Shown: piece by piece, positions 57,281 through 64,000 of the stretch | Numbering within the stretch: the first letter of the stretch is position 1 | Layout: every line of letters begins with the position of its first letter | From: Verrucomicrobiota bacterium | Lineage (GTDB): Bacteria > Verrucomicrobiota > Verrucomicrobiia > Limisphaerales > Palsa-1400 | Length of the DNA: 64,000 bases | Assembly: GCA_049510745.1 (NCBI GenBank) | Contig: JBEKYR010000001.1 | Location: forward strand, 160,001-224,000 | Direction of reading: 5' to 3' | Notes under the pieces: generated by a model | The model's database searches: none | The model's input: the letters and a program-made list of their open reading frames with translations, nothing else | What the model was told of the DNA's origin: nothing | Position numbers and translations under genes: made by a program

Positions 57281-57817
57281 ATGGCTCATTTCTGGATCAC
57301 TAATGGCGCGGGTGAATGGGGAGTCCACTCGCTGGCCGGGGAGAGTTGCCTGGCTGTATGTGCTGAACACAACGTGCGCTTAACAGCCCCTGCGGATCAG
57401 CCAGGTCTTGCCGAAATCCGCATCCTGCCGCCGGACCCAACTGGTGGGTCGCCGTCATGGACATTGCTGGGGGGCCGGGAGGCATCCCTGCGCGTCAACG
57501 GTCAGCCGTTGGTGCTTGGCATCCGTGCCCTGCGCGACCGCGATGAGATTTCCCTTGCTGGCCATCGATGCTTCTTTTCCACGGAAGAACTCGCACGCGT
57601 TGTGCCGTTCCCAGGGCTGGCTCAACCCGCCTATTGCCCGCGCTGCAAACAAAAAGTGGAGCCTGGGGATCCCGCCGTCGCCTGCCCCCACTGCCGGGCG
57701 TGGCATCATCAGTCGGAAAAATTTCCCTGCTGGACCTACGGCCCCACTTGTGCGCTGTGCCAACTGCACTCCACCGCACTCGACGCGGGCTATGCGTGGA
57801 CGCCGGCAATGCTGTGA
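57281..57817 (+). CDS. FHA-like domain + prokaryotic RING finger (E3-like)
   Basis: LRVNGQPL...LRDRDEISLAG FHA-type C-terminal strands; CPRC-x12-CPHC-x3-HH-x6-C-x6-CALC. Confidence 0.75.
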   Translation: MAHFWITNGAGEWGVHSLAGESCLAVCAEHNVRLTAPADQPGLAEIRILPPDPTGGSPSWTLLGGREASLRVNGQPLVLGIRALRDRDEISLAGHRCFFSTEELARVVPFPGLAQPAYCPRCKQKVEPGDPAVACPHCRAWHHQSEKFPCWTYGPTCALCQLHSTALDAGYAWTPAML

Positions 57818-57818
57818 C

Positions 57819-59003
57819 ATGAAACCCAATCGCCCAGCCGATTCGCGCCAAGCTTTGCAACCCCGTTGCCTGCATGGTGGGGGCAAGCACCTCGTCGTGT
57901 TGGGCGCGGGCGGAAACATCGGTTCGCATCTGGTTCCGCTGCTGGCGCGAATGCCCGGCGTCAAGCGGCTCACGCTCGTGGACTGCGATTGCTATGAGGA
58001 GAAGAATTTGCAGTCGCAGGACATCAGGCCATCGGACATAGGCCAGGCGAAAGCCCGCCTGCAGGCCCGCCGCGCCCGGCGCATCAATCCGAAGCTTGAA
58101 GTTGTGTCCATCGTTGACCGGCTTGAAAACGTCCCGCTCGGCTGCTTGCGAGGCGACATCATCCTCGCTTGTCTTGATTCCAAGGAAAGCCGGCGGTGCG
58201 CGAATGAAATCGCGTGGCGACTGGGCGTGCCCTGGATCGATGCCGGTGTGGAGCCGAGCCTGATGCTGGCGCGGGTGAACGTCTATCTGCCGGCGGCGGA
58301 TCAACCGTGTTTGGAGTGCGCGTGGAGTGAGCGCGACTACGCCGAATTGGCCACGATCCATCCATGCGACGGCGGTGGCTCTAAAAATCCGGCGACCAAC
58401 TCGCCGGCGTGCCTTGGCGCGCTGGCCGCCGCGTTGCAGGCCATTGAATGTCAGAGACTTCTCGCCGGACAATCGGCTTTGATCGGCCGGCAGGTGCTGA
58501 TCGAGGCGGCAACGCACCGGCATTTCGTCACTGCTTTTCGCCGCAACCCCAACTGCCGCTTTGACCATGCGACTTGGAAGATTTCCTCCTGGTGCCAGAC
58601 GCCGCGGAATCTCTCCATCGGCGCGATCCTCAAGCTGGCTCGCCGATCGGGTGCTTCGGCCGCGCTTGCGTTCGGCGGCCAGCCGCTCGTTAAAAGACTT
58701 GATTGTCCGGGGTGCGGCTTCACTCGGCGCGTTTTCCGTTTGCAGCGCCGTCTCAAGCACACCGATCGAGTCTGCGATCGTTGCGGCCGCGAAATGCTTT
58801 CCGCCGGTTTCCACATGAAAACCCGGTTGTCGAACGCGGATCTGGGTCCGGGTGACGCCAGTCGTTCGCTTGCGAGTCTTGGCTTGCAGACGGGCGACGT
58901 CATTTCCTTGGGCAACGGCGCGAGCGAAGAATTCTTCGAACTGCGCCCCGGACCCGGCCCGCACCCGCAAAGAGCGAAATCAATTCAACGGAGGGATTCA
59001 TGA
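57819..59003 (+). CDS. E1-like ubiquitin-activating enzyme (ThiF/MoeB family) with C-terminal Zn ribbon and possible Ub-fold domain
   Basis: VVLGAGGNIG, DCDCYEEKNL.SQ, GQAKA, ACLDS, PWIDAGV, PCLEC, HPC (candidate catalytic Cys), NPNCRFDH, CPGC...CDRC, SLASLGLQTGDVI. Confidence 0.9.
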   Translation: MKPNRPADSRQALQPRCLHGGGKHLVVLGAGGNIGSHLVPLLARMPGVKRLTLVDCDCYEEKNLQSQDIRPSDIGQAKARLQARRARRINPKLEVVSIVDRLENVPLGCLRGDIILACLDSKESRRCANEIAWRLGVPWIDAGVEPSLMLARVNVYLPAADQPCLECAWSERDYAELATIHPCDGGGSKNPATNSPACLGALAAALQAIECQRLLAGQSALIGRQVLIEAATHRHFVTAFRRNPNCRFDHATWKISSWCQTPRNLSIGAILKLARRSGASAALAFGGQPLVKRLDCPGCGFTRRVFRLQRRLKHTDRVCDRCGREMLSAGFHMKTRLSNADLGPGDASRSLASLGLQTGDVISLGNGASEEFFELRPGPGPHPQRAKSIQRRDS

Positions 59004-59536
59004 GCGACCAGATTTACGAAGCGTTCTTGCGCCGGCAGCTTGAAGAAGGCATGGCGCTGGCCAGCGGCAGCGACGTTCTGGACCTGACGCCGCTTCCAGG
59101 CGGAGAGCCGCCTTTCCGTTATATCGCGCATTTCGAGGGCCGCCGCGGCTTGGTGCGCGACGAGCGGGGCCAAATTGTTGAGTTTGAGAAGTTCATGGTT
59201 GGAATCTGGTTTCCCGAGGACTACCTGCGCCATGTGAACATCCCGCAGGTGCTTACCTACCTCGGCCCCCATCCCGAACCGTGGCATCCCAATATTCGTC
59301 CGCCGTTCTTGTGCGCGCACATTGAGCCAGGCACCGCGCTGGTTGATATACTTTACGCGTGCTACGAAATTTGGACGTGGAACCTGTTTGCGACGGGCGA
59401 CGAGGGCTTAAACCACGCGGCGTCGCAATGGTCGCGCAAACAAGATCGCTCCCGCTTTCCAATTGACCGGCGTCCGCTCCGGCGTCGCGCCGTGGAACTC
59501 GACGTGACCCCGGCTCCGGGAAAGGAAATCGCATGA
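59000..59536 (+). CDS. E2-like ubiquitin-conjugating enzyme
   Basis: IWFPEDY, PWHPNIRPPFLC (HPN + Cys), LVDIL, GLNHAA: UBC-fold signature in the expected order. Confidence 0.85.
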   Translation: MSDQIYEAFLRRQLEEGMALASGSDVLDLTPLPGGEPPFRYIAHFEGRRGLVRDERGQIVEFEKFMVGIWFPEDYLRHVNIPQVLTYLGPHPEPWHPNIRPPFLCAHIEPGTALVDILYACYEIWTWNLFATGDEGLNHAASQWSRKQDRSRFPIDRRPLRRRAVELDVTPAPGKEIA

Positions 59537-60414
59537 ATCACGTCCACGACGAGGCCATTCGCACGGCCATTGCCGCCGTGACGACGAAACTGGCGCCAGT
59601 GGGCAACTCCGGCTGGCAATTCACTTTGCTCAATGGAGCACCGCACGTTGTGACTGCGAAAACCGACGGTGACTGGGTGTTATTCGAGACGGACTGCACC
59701 GGAGCAGCGCAATGTGCGGATTCTTTCTGGGAAGCCCTTGTGCGCAACGCCTCCTTCGACGGCCTGGCGAAAATCGTGCTGACGTACGATGGCAGCCCGC
59801 GACTGCGAGCTGAAATCCCCGTAACGGAAGACGTTGTCCTCACGACGCGGGTTCGGGAGGTGTGCCGCGGATTCGAAGCCGAATGGACGCACAAAGATGA
59901 ACATTCTCTTGCGGAAGCATCGCCTGAGGGGGCAGAGCCGATGGACCTCAAAAGCCTGTGCTCCGAGGCCGGCTGGCCTTTTGTGGAGCGCGGCGACCGG
60001 AAACTCGCCGTGGAACTTGAAGTTCCGGGCGGGTTCAGCCAGGCGCTCCTGATTCCGACGGAACACGGCGTTCGCATCACTTGCGAAGTCGCGACGCTCG
60101 ACGCCATCGCGGAGGAATGCCGGCAGGCAGTCAGTGGATTCCTGCTTGCCGCTTCTGGGCTTGTTCGCATGGGACGCGCGTCGGTGAACGCGATTGGAAC
60201 GTCGCCGGCGGCCCAGTTCGAGGTTGTCTTCGGAACCGCGCCAAGTCCGCCAGAAATTTCCAGTGCATTGGAATGCCTCTCCATCGCGTGCAGCCTCTGT
60301 GGCGAGGAAATCAAAACGCTGCAAGTGCCGGCCATCGCCGAACGCTACCTTGCCCTGCGCGGTTGGGATGCGGCTCCGGCGGCCCGGCGAAACGAAAGGA
60401 CAGTAACACCATGA
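59533..60414 (+). CDS. Tandem YbjN/T3SS-chaperone-like domain protein
   Basis: Two ~140-aa alpha/beta halves (WEALVRN...AKIVL...LRAEIP; FLLAASGLVRMGRA...FEVVF); translationally coupled on both sides. Fold call is tentative. Confidence 0.5.
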   Translation: MNHVHDEAIRTAIAAVTTKLAPVGNSGWQFTLLNGAPHVVTAKTDGDWVLFETDCTGAAQCADSFWEALVRNASFDGLAKIVLTYDGSPRLRAEIPVTEDVVLTTRVREVCRGFEAEWTHKDEHSLAEASPEGAEPMDLKSLCSEAGWPFVERGDRKLAVELEVPGGFSQALLIPTEHGVRITCEVATLDAIAEECRQAVSGFLLAASGLVRMGRASVNAIGTSPAAQFEVVFGTAPSPPEISSALECLSIACSLCGEEIKTLQVPAIAERYLALRGWDAAPAARRNERTVTP

Positions 60415-60707
60415 TTGATGAACCCAAACTCGACATCCTCGCAAGCGATGTCACAGGCCAGACGGTGGTCAACGTCGGCATCGATGCCGGCGACCGGGAG
60501 ATGAGCGTGGGCGAGTTGCTCGACGGCCTGGTGCCGCGGATGAAACTGCCGCGGCTCGGGAACGGCGGGCGGCCGTTGACGTATCACGCCCGGCTGGAAC
60601 GGGAAGGAAGGCATCTGCATGCGACCGAGGTGGTGGGCGAAGCCCTGCAACCCAAGGATCGCATCATGATCCAGCCAACCATCGAAGCGGGAGGCAACCA
60701 CCGATAG
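60411..60707 (+). CDS. Ubiquitin-like beta-grasp protein with C-terminal GG + 3-aa extension
   Basis: 98 aa: MSVGELLDGL...LP...TYHARL..EGRHL....V...LQPKDRIMIQPTIEAGG-NHR*; AAGGA RBS upstream. Confidence 0.82.
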   Translation: MIDEPKLDILASDVTGQTVVNVGIDAGDREMSVGELLDGLVPRMKLPRLGNGGRPLTYHARLEREGRHLHATEVVGEALQPKDRIMIQPTIEAGGNHR

Positions 60708-60728
60708 CCCGCCAGACCGAGAGGAACC

Positions 60729-61835
60729 ATGAACACTCGACAGCCATACAAATTCGTAATGGAACTGCACAAACGAGATGGCTCTCCACTCGGCCAGGTC
60801 CCGGTGGCGGCCGATTGGGAACCGGCTTGGGAGGCGGTACGCTTCCTGGCCATGCGCCGGTTTCCGCTCGCCGCCCTCGGGGCCGATGCGGTGGCCGAAC
60901 TCCGGCCAGCCTGGCATGAGGAACTCGGTCAACCTTACATCAGCGCAGTGGACGTGGCACTCCAAGTTCCTGGGGCCGGCGAGCTCTCGTGCCGCGTGCC
61001 GAAAAACTTTTTCAAATCGCTTGCCAGTGATGCCAGCGTCCCTCTCGTAGAAAAGGGATCACTCCAGGCGGGCGAGCTTTTCAATTATCTCGTCACCGCG
61101 TTTCCCAGTCCGCAAGAAACGCGTGGTCGCACCCAACCGCGGGCGCGATTCGAGATCGAGGAAGTGCCGACCCCGCTGCCGCTCAAATCCTCGTTGCTGG
61201 CGAAATTTAACGCGCGGTCCGTCGCAGCCGGCGAGCAAAACGAGGAGGACATTCCAGTGTTCATTCCACAGAACGTTCTTGCGGAAACAGATCAATTGAC
61301 ACGCGAGGCGGCGGGGGTGGAAACCGCGTCCGTCCTTATCGGGCATATCCATCGCGACCCGTTGGGCGGAGAGTTGTTTCTCGAAGTGACGGCGCAGATT
61401 CCCGCCCGAAACTCGCAGGCCACCGCCACGAAGGTGAGCTTCGGGCCCGAGACGTGGAACGCAGTTCATGGCGCGCTCGCGTTGAGGAGCGAAAATGAAC
61501 AATGGGTGGGTTGGTTTCATTCGCACCCTGCCGCATCGTGGTGCAATTCCAAATGCTCACCCGAGAGCCGCGCGAAATGTCCGCTACAACGCTCCTTCTT
61601 TAGCGCCGATGACTGCGATGTGCATCGGACCGTTTTTTCCAAGGCGTTTCATATCGCCCTGCTGGTCACGAACACGGACGCCGGGTTACAGCATGCGCTG
61701 TTCTCGTGGCGCAACGGCGTGATTGTGCAACGTGGATTTCACATTCTTGGAAACGAAGGAGAACAAAACCCGGCCGTCGCGCCTGTCGCGGCGGCCACCA
61801 TTGGAGATGCCGAAAATGAAAAAACCTGCCCTTGA
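60729..61835 (+). CDS. JAB/MPN (JAMM) metallopeptidase with N-terminal extra domain
   Basis: VETASVLIG (Glu), VGWFHSHP, FFSADD; GAGG RBS. Confidence 0.88.
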   Translation: MNTRQPYKFVMELHKRDGSPLGQVPVAADWEPAWEAVRFLAMRRFPLAALGADAVAELRPAWHEELGQPYISAVDVALQVPGAGELSCRVPKNFFKSLASDASVPLVEKGSLQAGELFNYLVTAFPSPQETRGRTQPRARFEIEEVPTPLPLKSSLLAKFNARSVAAGEQNEEDIPVFIPQNVLAETDQLTREAAGVETASVLIGHIHRDPLGGELFLEVTAQIPARNSQATATKVSFGPETWNAVHGALALRSENEQWVGWFHSHPAASWCNSKCSPESRAKCPLQRSFFSADDCDVHRTVFSKAFHIALLVTNTDAGLQHALFSWRNGVIVQRGFHILGNEGEQNPAVAPVAAATIGDAENEKTCP

Positions 61836-63483
61836 CGAGACTGTTGAGCTAGTGCGCGCCATGCTTTCGGTCGAGGGCCCCCAAAGCCTTGACGGAACTA
61901 TCGCGAGCCTGCAACAGGTCCGCAGCCTGTCTGCGGAAACTGCCGCCGTCGTGGATCGGACGCTGGTGGAAACCGTCGCCGAGTATCGCCGCGCCCTGAA
62001 GCGTGCGCAGCGTGATATTCATCAGTGCCGCGAATTGCTCGAACAACTGTCCGCGCCTCCCCTGCATCCCGCCGTTTTCCATCGAGTGATCAACGCCACC
62101 GGCGCACTCAAGGCCCTGGTCCAGGCGGGAAACGCCCGGCGGGTCGTTTCTCCTGGAGAAGAAATCAATCTTACGAGGTTCGTTCGCGGCGACGAGGTTT
62201 TCCTCAATAACGAACAGAATCTCATCATTGCCGCCTCGCCCGATGGCCCTCCAAGCTGTGGCGAAACCGCGGCGTTCGAGCGTTGTCTGCCCGATGGACG
62301 GCTGGTGCTGCGCCATCACGACGATCATATCGTGGTGGACGTCTGCGGAAAACTGGCGAACACCAAGTTCAAAGCCGGGGACGCCGTGCGTTTCGACCGT
62401 ACTATTTGGATGGCTTATGAGAAAATCGAGCTTGAAACCTCCCGGCGCTACTTGCTGGAGGAAGTGCCGAACCTTCCGCTGGACTCGGTAGGCGGCCAAG
62501 GCGCAAATCTGGAGAGCCTTTTGTCCGTGCTCACGATGATTCTAGTCAACCCGAAACTCGCCGCCACCTACGGCCTGAATGGTCGCAGCTCCATCCTCAT
62601 GGCCGGGCCGCCGGGTTGCGGGAAAACCCTGATGGCCCGCGTCGCCGCGAGCGAAGTCTCACGGCTTACTGGGAAGAAATGCCGTCTTGCCGTGGTGAAA
62701 CCGTCCGAATGGGAATCGCCCTGGGTTGGCCAGACACAGGAAAACATCCGCCAATGCTTCCAAGCGCTTCGCGAGGTGGGCGAGGATGGTTACGCCGTGC
62801 TGTTTATGGACGAAATTGAATCCGTCGGACGGATACGCGGGGGCGCGGTTTCACATCATTCGGATAAGTTTCTCGCAGCTCTGCTGGCCGAACTGGACGG
62901 ATTTACCGACCGCAAGAACGTGGCCATCATCTGCGCCACAAATCGGAAAGATTTGCTTGACGCCGCGCTCTACGAGCGATTGAGCGATTTGGAAATCAAC
63001 GTGGGCCGGCCTGAAATGAAGGGTGCGCGCGCCATCTTCCAGATCCACCTTCCGGAGAGCGTCCCGTTCCATCCGAACGGCGAGCTGGCAATGCCCACGC
63101 GCGAGGCATTGATCGACCACGCCGTTTCCCAGTTCTACAGCCCGAACGCCGGCAACGAGCTTTGCACGCTCCGGTTTCGCGACGGCAAGCAACGGATCAT
63201 CGTCGCGCGCGAATTGGCCAGCGGACGCCTGTTTGAGAATGTGTGCCGCAGTGCGCGCCGTAGCGCATTCCTGCGCGAGGTCCGCGGCGGCGTCGCGGGG
63301 GTGCAATTGATGGACATGCAGGAAGCGGTCAGCCAGACGCTGGAACGAATGCGCACGACTTTGACCATTCGTAACGCCCAGGCGTATCTGCCCGATTTGC
63401 CTCAGGACGTGGATGTGGTCAGCGTCGAACCCATTGTCCGCAGGGTGAAGCAACCCCACAAGTATCTCAATCAACCGGCCTGA
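61816..63483 (+). CDS. ARC/Mpa-like proteasomal AAA+ ATPase
   Basis: Coiled coil ending LEQLSAPP, two OB-like regions, LLEEVP...SVGG, GPPGCGKTLMAR, WVG pore loop, FMDEIE, LLAELDG, ATNR.DLLD.AL, Mpa-like FRDGKQ...ASG..ENVC.SAR. Confidence 0.88.
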   Translation: MKKPALDETVELVRAMLSVEGPQSLDGTIASLQQVRSLSAETAAVVDRTLVETVAEYRRALKRAQRDIHQCRELLEQLSAPPLHPAVFHRVINATGALKALVQAGNARRVVSPGEEINLTRFVRGDEVFLNNEQNLIIAASPDGPPSCGETAAFERCLPDGRLVLRHHDDHIVVDVCGKLANTKFKAGDAVRFDRTIWMAYEKIELETSRRYLLEEVPNLPLDSVGGQGANLESLLSVLTMILVNPKLAATYGLNGRSSILMAGPPGCGKTLMARVAASEVSRLTGKKCRLAVVKPSEWESPWVGQTQENIRQCFQALREVGEDGYAVLFMDEIESVGRIRGGAVSHHSDKFLAALLAELDGFTDRKNVAIICATNRKDLLDAALYERLSDLEINVGRPEMKGARAIFQIHLPESVPFHPNGELAMPTREALIDHAVSQFYSPNAGNELCTLRFRDGKQRIIVARELASGRLFENVCRSARRSAFLREVRGGVAGVQLMDMQEAVSQTLERMRTTLTIRNAQAYLPDLPQDVDVVSVEPIVRRVKQPHKYLNQPA

Positions 63484-63496
63484 CCCAGTGAATCCA

Positions 63497-64000
63497 ATGC
63501 CCACATCCACCAGCCAAGCCGGTTCACACAACGGCGAGTCACCACGCCCCCGCCTGCCGAAGCTCTGCGGCGCTGATTTCGAGCTGGGCAACCTCGTTCT
63601 CGGAATCGACCTGCCAAAGGGCACGGGTGCGCTTGCTTCTCATTTGCTCTTGCGGGAATTCGACGGTCTGCCTTTGGCGCGCAAAGGCCAGTCCATCTGT
63701 TACTGTCAAGCCTGCACGGCGCGGCGGCGGGCGTTGGAGGATGGTTACACCACGGCCGAGTTCCTGGGCGAAGAGTGTTCCATGACCAAGTACGGCTCGG
63801 CCTACAATGCGCAGGACTGGGCGCGCAAATTCCTCAGCAACGGCGGCTGCGCTTACATTGATCTCGATCATCTCGAATTGTGCATCCCGGAGGTTCTGAG
63901 CGCGCGTGACCACGTTGCGGCGTCGCACGCGATGTTGCGCAAGGCGCGCGCGGCCCTGCAAATGGCCAACGCGCGATTGCCGGAAGGAAAGAAAATTGTC
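63497..64000 (+). CDS. PafA/Dop-family (Pup ligase/depupylase-like) protein, 3' end outside the window
   Basis: Absent from the ORF track. 168 open codons: KLCGADFELG (cf. GhEtEyG) and FLSNGGCAYIDLDHLELCIPE (cf. L.NGaRlYvD..HpEy.tPE). Confidence 0.82.
   Translation, partial: MPTSTSQAGSHNGESPRPRLPKLCGADFELGNLVLGIDLPKGTGALASHLLLREFDGLPLARKGQSICYCQACTARRRALEDGYTTAEFLGEECSMTKYGSAYNAQDWARKFLSNGGCAYIDLDHLELCIPEVLSARDHVAASHAMLRKARAALQMANARLPEGKKIV

Follow-up and report, generated by a model that had tools for sequence, protein, structure and literature searches.

At the end of a 64,000-nucleotide (nt) stretch of a Verrucomicrobiota genome (assembly GCA_049510745.1, contig JBEKYR010000001.1, positions 160,001 to 224,000; hereafter the window), we identified a gene cassette that combines the components of a ubiquitin-like conjugation cascade with relatives of those of the Pup system. 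From position 57281 to the window end lie eight densely packed, co-oriented genes, all on the plus strand. They encode a RING protein, an E1, an E2, a protein of 293 amino acids (aa) that we call X293, a putative ubiquitin-like protein (Ubl), a JAB metalloprotease, an AAA+ ATPase related to Mpa/ARC, and the first of two Pup-ligase homologues, PL1. The unit continues past the window, in the stretch L002, with a gene for a Pup-like protein and the second Pup-ligase homologue, PL2, and a candidate regulator gene precedes it (Table 1). Here and below, L-numbers denote sequence stretches or loci taken from genomes, and G000 is the window's own genome.

Read from the sequence, the junctions from the RING gene to PL1 are a 1-nt gap, three ATGA overlaps, a 21-nt gap, an overlap between the JAB and ATPase genes (29 nt with the ATPase start at 61807, 20 nt with the ATG at 61816), and a 4-nt gap. 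An initial annotation had placed eight co-oriented, tightly coupled genes at 57281..64000, and all eight are there with the same coordinates. The junctions that it listed (three ATGA overlaps, a 20-nt overlap, and short gaps) agree with the sequence as well, and its gene identities (FHA-like plus RING, E1, E2, YbjN-like, Ubl, JAB, AAA+, and PafA/Dop family) hold by family, fold, or motif evidence. It had also suggested reading beyond 64000 for further Pup-type and proteasome genes, and this yielded the Pup-like peptide and the second ligase, without 20S genes.

Table 1. Genes of the cassette and the linked regulator gene, with their detection across loci that carry the same E2 family.
Gene product	Position	Strand	Basis of assignment	Loci with gene
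RING protein, E3 candidate, 178 aa	57281..57817	+	Prok-RING_1 near cut-off, C4HC3 ligands	68/72
E1-like adenylating enzyme, 394 aa, with C-terminal zinc ribbon and extension	57819..59003	+	ThiF	71/74
E2, 178 aa, HPN...C active site	59000..59536	+	UBC fold, predicted structure	
X293, two tandem YbjN / type III secretion chaperone-like domains	59533..60414	+	AlphaFold and Foldseek	65/71 (tblastn)
Putative Ubl precursor, 98 aa, ...AG then GNHR	60411..60707	+	motif, weak YukD matches	69/69
JAB/JAMM metalloprotease, 368 aa	60729..61835	+	Pfam JAB	67/67
Mpa/ARC-like AAA+ unfoldase, 558 aa from 61807 (alternative start 61816)	61807..63483	+	AAA, OB domain	64/64
PL1, 587 aa	63488..64000, running on to L002 9251 (window position 65251)	+	Pup_ligase	63/63
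Pup-like protein, 67 aa, ends RQEGGQ	L002 9223-9426 (past window)		same unit	52/61
PL2, 805 aa	L002 9447-11864 (past window)		Pup_ligase, weak TPR match	53/61 (directly downstream)
Candidate dedicated regulator, 200 aa, C-terminal OmpR/PhoB-type winged helix	56513..57115	+	weak Trans_reg_C	

Recurrence of the cassette across bacterial genomes

A scan with an E2 alignment, covering one genome per species, returned 83 loci, of which 80 were kept and 78 belong to the E2 family of the window. Genes were placed in these loci by tblastn with the window proteins, and the per-gene counts in Table 1 leave out loci whose DNA is too short on the side concerned. The order RING-E1-E2-X293-Ubl-JAB-AAA-PL1-Pup-PL2 recurs in nearly all of the 78 loci, whose hosts are Acidobacteriota, Verrucomicrobiota, Planctomycetota, Gemmatimonadota, and a few proteobacterial metagenome-assembled genomes (MAGs). 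The two halves are joined as tightly as the genes within each half, with median gaps of -11 nt between JAB and AAA and 1.5 nt between AAA and PL1. Departures from the common order are found in several Acidobacteriaceae loci, where PL2 is nearby on the opposite strand or elsewhere in the locus, and in three acidobacterial genomes (L019, L020, and L040; L096-L098), where RING and E1 form a two-gene unit elsewhere and E2-X293-Ubl-JAB-AAA-PL1-Pup-PL2 stand together.

The association also holds in both directions at the level of whole genomes. Among 400 genomes sampled from the phylum of one acidobacterial host, an E2 of this family was found in 5; each of these also has a PL1-type ligase (51-65% identity), with the two genes sharing a contig in 4, and neither was found alone anywhere in the sample. 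The spread is patchy: of the 401 genomes sampled from the phylum to which the window belongs, 1 carries the cassette.

The regulator gene upstream of the window cassette belongs to this recurring picture. Its product matches Trans_reg_C at E 3.5e-4 and 21 bits, under the cut-off of 26.2, and is homologous (BLASTP E 9e-9) to a cluster of open reading frames (ORFs) of about 216 aa that lie beside the cassette in 40 of the 78 loci, immediately upstream on the cassette's strand in 23 and downstream on the other strand in 14. One member of this cluster, in L014, passes the Trans_reg_C cut-off (27.1 against 26.2). We read the cassette as a single conserved and horizontally spread unit of ten genes with a linked regulator; its genes are co-inherited in a fixed order, their junctions are translationally coupled, and the recurrence of the arrangement is far beyond chance. 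The proposal of the initial annotation that one unit joins E1-E2-RING-Ubl-JAB to an ARC/Mpa ATPase and the Pup-ligase family is borne out by the locus counts and the reciprocal association. The neighborhood check that it had put forward, of whether the Ubl module co-occurs with the ATPase and ligase, came out with the ATPase in all 64 loci and PL1 in all 63.

One of the 400 sampled genomes has a very divergent cassette, L099 (G610:C59, 1873-14196, plus strand), with the same ten slots at 21-29% identity; the Ubl of this cassette ends in ...AAG and its small ORF in RQRGAQ. Directly after the cassette stands a gene for a 769-aa ClpA/B-like double AAA+ protein. Four third-party MAG records (L010, L013, L025, and L012), in which the E2 is 53-64% identical, are labelled Bifidobacteriaceae or Brocadiaceae, and the Bifidobacteriaceae labels look doubtful.

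Protein families of the two halves

The RING protein matches the Pfam family Prok-RING_1 at E 4e-6 and 27.1 bits, just below the cut-off of 29.1. Across 30 sequences, the zinc ligands C119, C122, C135, C138, C150, C157, and C160 are invariant and H143 is near-invariant, giving an eight-ligand C4HC3 pattern, and a profile of the family retrieves PHD and RING-H2 fingers from the Protein Data Bank (PDB) at E 0.004-0.12. In an Atlas model, residues 1-112 resemble FHA/YscD clusters with template modeling (TM) scores of 0.62-0.65, which we treat as a lead only. The protein is a candidate E3 with a possible N-terminal FHA-like domain and a putative C-terminal C4HC3 RING-type zinc finger. The E1 matches ThiF in Pfam (E 8.4e-28, 97.6 bits), and its closest named families in NCBIfam are ThiF and MoeB, with every match far under the equivalog cut-offs. 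Residues G29, G32, G35, D120, C164, C167, C183, C246, H250, C296, C299, C319, and C322 are at least 95% conserved in 63 sequences and include two zinc sites; we infer C183 as the candidate catalytic cysteine.

The E2, the Ubl, and X293 match no Pfam family. The E2 family has 227 relatives in a large protein collection, none of them with a Pfam domain, and the Pfam E2 families match 0 of 17 family members; as profiles, the E2 and Ubl alignments found no significant match among PDB sequences. Across 17 E2 sequences, P97, N98, and C105 are invariant and H96 is nearly so. The initial annotation had named the fold of the E2 as a point to be checked, and a Foldseek comparison of its AlphaFold model (predicted local distance difference test, pLDDT, 79.9) with the PDB gave ubiquitin-conjugating E2s for 50 of the 50 listed matches, at probability 0.96-1.0 and TM 0.37-0.51 by query. 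In the divergent L099 cassette, the E2 passes the Pfam model UQ_con (28.0 against a cut-off of 27). At the level of predicted structure, the protein is confirmed as a UBC-fold enzyme.

In the Ubl, A93 and G94 are invariant and are followed by 0-17 variable residues, with 11 of 32 sequences ending exactly at AG; over all loci, the AG motif is present in 67 of 69, and 14 have no extension beyond it. Weak YukD matches were obtained for 8 of 32 members (best E 0.0075), the Atlas neighbor cluster of the protein is 14% YukD, and the best PDB matches of its profile are SAMP1/MoaD at a non-significant E of 0.13-0.17. By these sequence matches, the protein is probably a YukD-like beta-grasp modifier precursor. 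The metalloprotease scores 23.3 bits with Pfam JAB (cut-off 22.5) and 20.2 with Prok-JAB. In 64 sequences, conservation is at least 95% both for its JAMM motif (E198, H264, H266, S292, and D295) and for the cysteines C272, C276, and C284 of an insert; the protein also has an N-terminal domain of about 180 aa. The AlphaFold model of X293 (pLDDT 89, predicted TM score 0.88) has two tandem domains, each with single-domain Foldseek matches, at probability 0.99-1.0, among type III secretion chaperones and a YbjN-like protein (SicP 1jyo, ExsC 3kxy, SchA 4g6t, 2plg, and 8q8o). X293 is possibly an adaptor or a holder of an unfolded partner; a complex prediction with the Pup-like protein (score 0.02, mark 0.32) is evidence neither way.

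The ATPase has an AAA domain (E 4e-27, 95.7 bits) and, at 28.8 bits against a cut-off of 23, the C-terminal OB domain of proteasomal ATPases. Its best NCBIfam family is pup_AAA, at 246 bits, and the cut-off of 504.75 places this match below equivalog level. Conservation is at least 95% at K273 (Walker A), D335/E336 (Walker B), and N379, and at least 80% at W306 in the pore loop. The C-terminus is conserved as H-R-Y-[LR]-x-x-A(A), with the tyrosine 5-6 residues before the end, so that there is no terminal docking motif. In the closest public relative (L009, 12884-14563), the ATPase gene has an in-frame stop two codons before the aligned tail end (...HRYLN*PM), just past the tyrosine motif.

Both ligase homologues match Pup_ligase in Pfam (PL1 at E 3.8e-93 and 313 bits, PL2 at E 2.2e-85). 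In NCBIfam, PL1 scores 272 bits with Dop and 217 with PafA, both under cut-off, and the two proteins together span 208-272 bits against Dop/PafA equivalog cut-offs of 492 and 551. The conserved motif of PL1 is G28-x-D30-x-E32, or GxDxE instead of GxExE, and PL2 carries the canonical form (G7-x-E9-x-E11). In a FastTree phylogeny of 55 PL1, 45 PL2, and only two canonical sequences, the Dop-like and PafA-like proteins of the window's genome, PL1 and PL2 are each monophyletic with support 1.0, and the canonical pair forms a group of its own (0.887) instead of splitting between the two clades. PL1 and PL2 are members of the Pup_ligase family that appear to form a lineage of their own and not to be orthologues of Dop or PafA, a placement that needs a fuller tree. 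Of 52 sequences of the Pup-like protein, 50 end in GG[QE] (Q 35, E 17). When the profile of the Pup-like protein was compared with the PDB, Pup chains made up 6 of the top 7 matches, at E 0.05-0.63 and with the alignment reaching the C-terminal GGQ; the NCBIfam UBact model does not match it. Catalytic residues are conserved in E1, E2, JAB, AAA, PL1, and PL2, and all the enzymes of the cassette look active.

Readings of the combined system

We favor, with a probability of roughly 0.6, a reading in which the cassette provides two chemically different tagging systems and one unfoldase that work without a dedicated 20S proteasome. The JAB protein would trim the Ubl precursor to its invariant ...AG end, and the E1 would adenylate the Ubl and take it up as a thioester, by way of the candidate C183. 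The Ubl would then be carried on C105 of the E2, and the FHA-like RING protein might direct it onto lysines of chosen targets. In the other half, the Pup-like protein ends in Q in about two-thirds of the loci and so would need deamidation. One Pup-ligase paralogue might ligate the Pup-like tag through its terminal gamma-carboxylate, with the other deamidating and removing it; PL2, with its canonical GxExE, is the likelier ligase, and PL1 may be the deamidase and tag remover. The Mpa-like hexamer would grip the Pup-like helix by coiled coils and thread the tagged protein, and JAB, whose gene overlaps that of the ATPase, might strip the Ubl at the pore in the manner of Rpn11. The link that we prefer between the halves is that the Ubl cascade may serve in target choice and the Pup-like tag as a handle and unstructured start site for the unfoldase, with unfolding, extraction, or hand-off to an unlinked protease as the possible outcome.

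A bolder form of this proposal, which we regard as doubtful, is that bacteria of at least four phyla use a two-signal tagging pathway to build a composite degron. An E3-directed Ubl would select the target, a disordered Pup-like tag on the marked protein or on the Ubl itself would recruit the Mpa-type unfoldase, and JAB would recycle the Ubl like Rpn11. By analogy, this would amount to proteasome-type lid-and-base logic put together from bacterial parts, without a 20S, acting as an immune or stress effector.

The initial annotation had raised the prospect of a bacterial ubiquitin-proteasome system, in which the Mpa-like ATPase would dock on a 20S encoded elsewhere and both tags would lead to proteasomal degradation. 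The OB domain of the ATPase and its affinity to pup_AAA speak for this, as do the 20S beta (151.6 bits) and alpha (49.3 bits) homologues that the window's genome encodes on a contig other than that of the cassette. The genome's Pup-ligase-family genes number four, and its proteasomal-type ATPases two. Contig 5 of G000 carries a canonical UBact-PrcB-PrcA-Pup-ligase cluster (L094 6313-9461, minus strand), whose UBact scores 82.8 bits with NF033388 (cut-off 35) and ends in RQRTGQ, and contig 30 carries an Mpa (423 bits)-Dop (435 bits) pair (L095 5207-8747, plus strand). Since the genome's 20S lies in the UBact cluster, with its own Mpa and Dop on a third contig, it already has partners. No 20S genes are present in or next to the cassette at the window locus, nor within 10 kb in any of the 78 loci, the latter an indirect result from flank clustering and Pfam sampling. 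Ten further genomes with the cassette, picked because their contigs are long, were searched for 20S beta and gave 0 matches above 32 bits (best 31.7, and none at all in six genomes), and weak matches of this level are also given by controls with only HslV, such as E. coli and B. subtilis. HbYX docking motifs are terminal, and Mpa ends in GQYL; the tyrosine of the cassette ATPase lies inside the tail. With no linked 20S, 20S beta matches above 32 bits in 0/10 other hosts searched, and no terminal docking motif, the proteasome version did not stand up, and we consider it improbable. The window's genome also contains two further weak homologues of the proteasome (N-terminal nucleophile, Ntn) fold, at L005 (contig 24) 194-2166 and L006 (contig 12) 862-1722, both on the minus strand, one of which adjoins an IS1595 transposase.

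Alternatively, one tagging system may control the other, with the Pup-like tag and unfoldase turning over or resetting the E2/E3/Ubl machinery, for example, or the reverse. Such an arrangement would be akin to the selfish elements built on modification and de-modification that Aravind and colleagues have proposed (PMC3417536). Each half has its own writer and eraser (E1/E2/RING and JAB in one, the two ligase paralogues in the other), the operons are mobile and patchy, and in the three genomes with RING-E1 elsewhere E2-X293-Ubl-JAB stays with the Pup half. We nevertheless think such cross-control unlikely, as no conserved lysine or other mark on the cassette proteins points to a fixed internal target. 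Far less credible is that the Ubl/E1 pair is a ThiS/MoaD-type sulfur carrier or part of cofactor biosynthesis and not a protein modifier. The affinity of the E1 to ThiF/MoeB and the weak SAMP1/MoaD matches of the Ubl would fit, but the fact that the pair is always accompanied by an E2 (UBC fold, HPN...C), a RING protein, and a JAMM protease, the lack of linked biosynthetic enzymes, and E1 matches far below equivalog cut-offs led us to reject this reading. Chance adjacency of an ordinary Ubl operon and an ordinary Pup/UBact cluster has a negligible probability and is likewise rejected, being refuted by the locus and genome counts. Both kinds of module do occur alone, as related Ubl operons without a Pup module (L087, L088, and L100) and as canonical Pup-ligase pairs without this E2 in 6 other genomes of the 400; against this stand the 64/64 loci with AAA and 63/63 with PL1, the 5/5 reciprocal association with no singletons in the 400 genomes, the overlap of the JAB and AAA genes, and the separate, fully supported clades of PL1 and PL2.

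Several observations weigh against the two-tag reading that we favor. The fold assignment of the Ubl draws on weak sequence matches. Pfam Pup matches 3 of 28 Pup-like members with a best E of 0.073, so that the assignment by sequence is statistically marginal, and hhalign detected no similarity between the Pup-like profile and the genome's own UBact. In the tree, with its two canonical sequences, the genome's Dop-like and PafA-like proteins stand apart from both PL1 and PL2, and PL2 has H-T-S at the place where PafA-type enzymes carry [HQ]x[NH], according to Iyer 2008. There is no invariant lysine in the Ubl or in the Pup-like tag, and a fixed Ubl-Pup hybrid linkage is therefore not indicated. 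The 10 genomes searched for 20S beta are MAGs of unreported completeness, and our literature search found no experimental study of the cassette.

With respect to its physiological role, a response to conflict (anti-phage) or to stress is our guess. Conflict is suggested by the STAND NTPase, TIR, or WD40 genes that flank 6 of 22 loci, by the patchy distribution, and by the placing of related Ubl systems among conflict systems in Kaur et al., eLife 2020. The other upstream neighbors of the cassette in the window are housekeeping genes. PADLOC-DB gives the ten cassette proteins only generic E1, JAB, and AAA matches: the E1 scores at most 34 bits with E1-E2 models of CBASS, the anti-phage signaling system based on cyclic oligonucleotides, and 14.6 bits with BilD, the JAB protein scores 19.8 bits, and the AAA protein matches IetA and TRIP13, with E2, Ubl, RING, X293, both ligases, and the Pup-like protein unmatched. 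The cassette was not found on viral contigs by a pattern scan or on plasmids by tblastn with the E2. Given the housekeeping flanks, the generic PADLOC matches, and the lack of viral or plasmid copies, a defense role is unproven.

Most accounts treat ubiquitin-type (thioester) and Pup-type (glutamine-synthetase-like) tagging as separate solutions reached by convergence. In the cassette, both chemistries are locked in one operon with a proteasomal-type unfoldase and a JAB protein, in several phyla of soil and water bacteria that mostly lack a proteasome. If the two halves cooperate, the cassette would open to testing the coupling of a Ubl signal to an AAA+ unfoldase outside eukaryotes and archaea, the role of Pup-type tags where no 20S exists, and the question of whether bacteria came to seat JAB on an ATPase ring in the manner of Rpn11. 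It also adds an uncharacterized family of UBC-fold E2s outside all Pfam E2 models and what appears to be a third lineage of Pup-ligase enzymes.

Known systems and genomic surroundings

The Ubl half of the cassette is similar to prokaryotic E1-E2-RING-Ubl-JAB operons, known from Prok-RING_1 neighborhoods and from Caldiarchaeum subterraneum, which share with it a separate E1, a UBC-fold HPN...C E2, and a JAMM protease in one operon and have counterparts of its small, putative RING protein and of its putative Ubl with a C-terminal Gly, often with a cleavable tail. Burroughs, Iyer, and Aravind reportedly defined the prokaryotic RING families in 2011, predicted such bacterial operons, and proposed that YukD-like Ubls are conjugated. 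The cassette differs from these operons in adding the tandem YbjN-like protein, the Mpa-like ATPase, the two Pup-ligase paralogues, and the Pup-like peptide, and in having an E2 missed by all Pfam E2 models (0/17), a Ubl that is probably YukD-like rather than ubiquitin-like, and a possible FHA-like domain on the RING protein. The Caldiarchaeum operon was reconstituted by Hennell James et al. 2017 (PMC5654768). Bil (BilABCD), Bub, and the Cap2/Cap3 systems of type II CBASS likewise combine an E1, an E2, a Ubl, and a deconjugating peptidase in a sparse operon; unlike the cassette, they are without a RING protein, a Pup module, or a proteasomal-type ATPase, and the PADLOC matches to them are generic.

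The other half recalls the Pup-proteasome system of Actinobacteria (Mpa/ARC, Dop, Pup, PrcBA, and PafA) and the UBact system of Gram-negative phyla. The order of ATPase, ligase, GG[QE] tag, and second ligase is the same, as are the OB domain of the ATPase and the Pup-like C-terminal pattern of the tag. In contrast to those systems, the cassette has no 20S genes, its ATPase and ligases score far under the equivalog cut-offs, and its ligases fall in clades of their own. Its tag is missed by a UBact model that readily recognizes the genome's own UBact (82.8 bits), and its Pup module is always joined to a Ubl cascade.

The initial annotation knew of no characterized system with this combination. 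In the sense of an experimentally studied system, we too found none, whereas the coupling itself had already been noted: one sentence in Kaur et al., eLife 2020 (PMC7159879) mentions a Ubl system coupled with the Pup system, and related Ubl systems are placed there among conflict systems. The coupling is of the same kind and Planctomycetes are among the hosts here too; whether the remark concerns this exact cassette cannot be told from it. The accessible text of that paper and two of its supplements contain no gene list, counts, or analysis of the coupling. Beyond this remark, the present analysis extends the host range to Acidobacteriota, Verrucomicrobiota, and Gemmatimonadota and works out the composition of the cassette, its independence of a 20S, and the two-way association. 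Ligases of Chthoniobacter and Solibacter appear in an alignment legend of Iyer 2008, with no link to a Ubl described in its accessible text. The accessible parts of PMC7947786, PMC11354881, PMC5654768, PMC3082918, PMC3417536, PMC7203096, and the Corbett-lab preprints make no mention of the coupling. We found no paper that analyzes the combination beyond the eLife 2020 sentence; a fuller earlier description, for instance in Burroughs et al. 2011, may exist.

The flanks of 22 diverse loci were surveyed by Pfam. Genes for STAND NTPases, TIR, or WD40 proteins occur in the flanks of 6 of them (L011, L012, L015, L029, L035, and L046), where large STAND NTPases (with NACHT/AAA_16, DUF4062, WD40, or FGE-sulfatase domains) and a TIR_2 protein lie within 6.5 kb. 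Sigma-54 activators flank 4 of the 22, and an ATPase of about 390 aa with an AAA lid stands directly downstream in 4 of the 22; the flanks are otherwise ordinary-looking. Clustering finds the ~390-aa protein in 18 loci, about 100 nt after PL2 and on the same strand, with AAA_lid_9 and, in L015, AAA_16/nSTAND1 as well. Examples are L015 18495-19676, L022 18397-19521, L034 18745-19935, and L049 18517-19695; the gene is absent after PL2 in the window's genome. There, PL2 is followed by a 68-aa ORF (L002 11899-12105), which matches no family and lacks relatives among the other loci, and then by genes for an alpha-2-macroglobulin (1808 aa) and a PBP1C-type transglycosylase/transpeptidase (L002 12102-19765, past the window), an ordinary-looking pair unrelated to the cassette.

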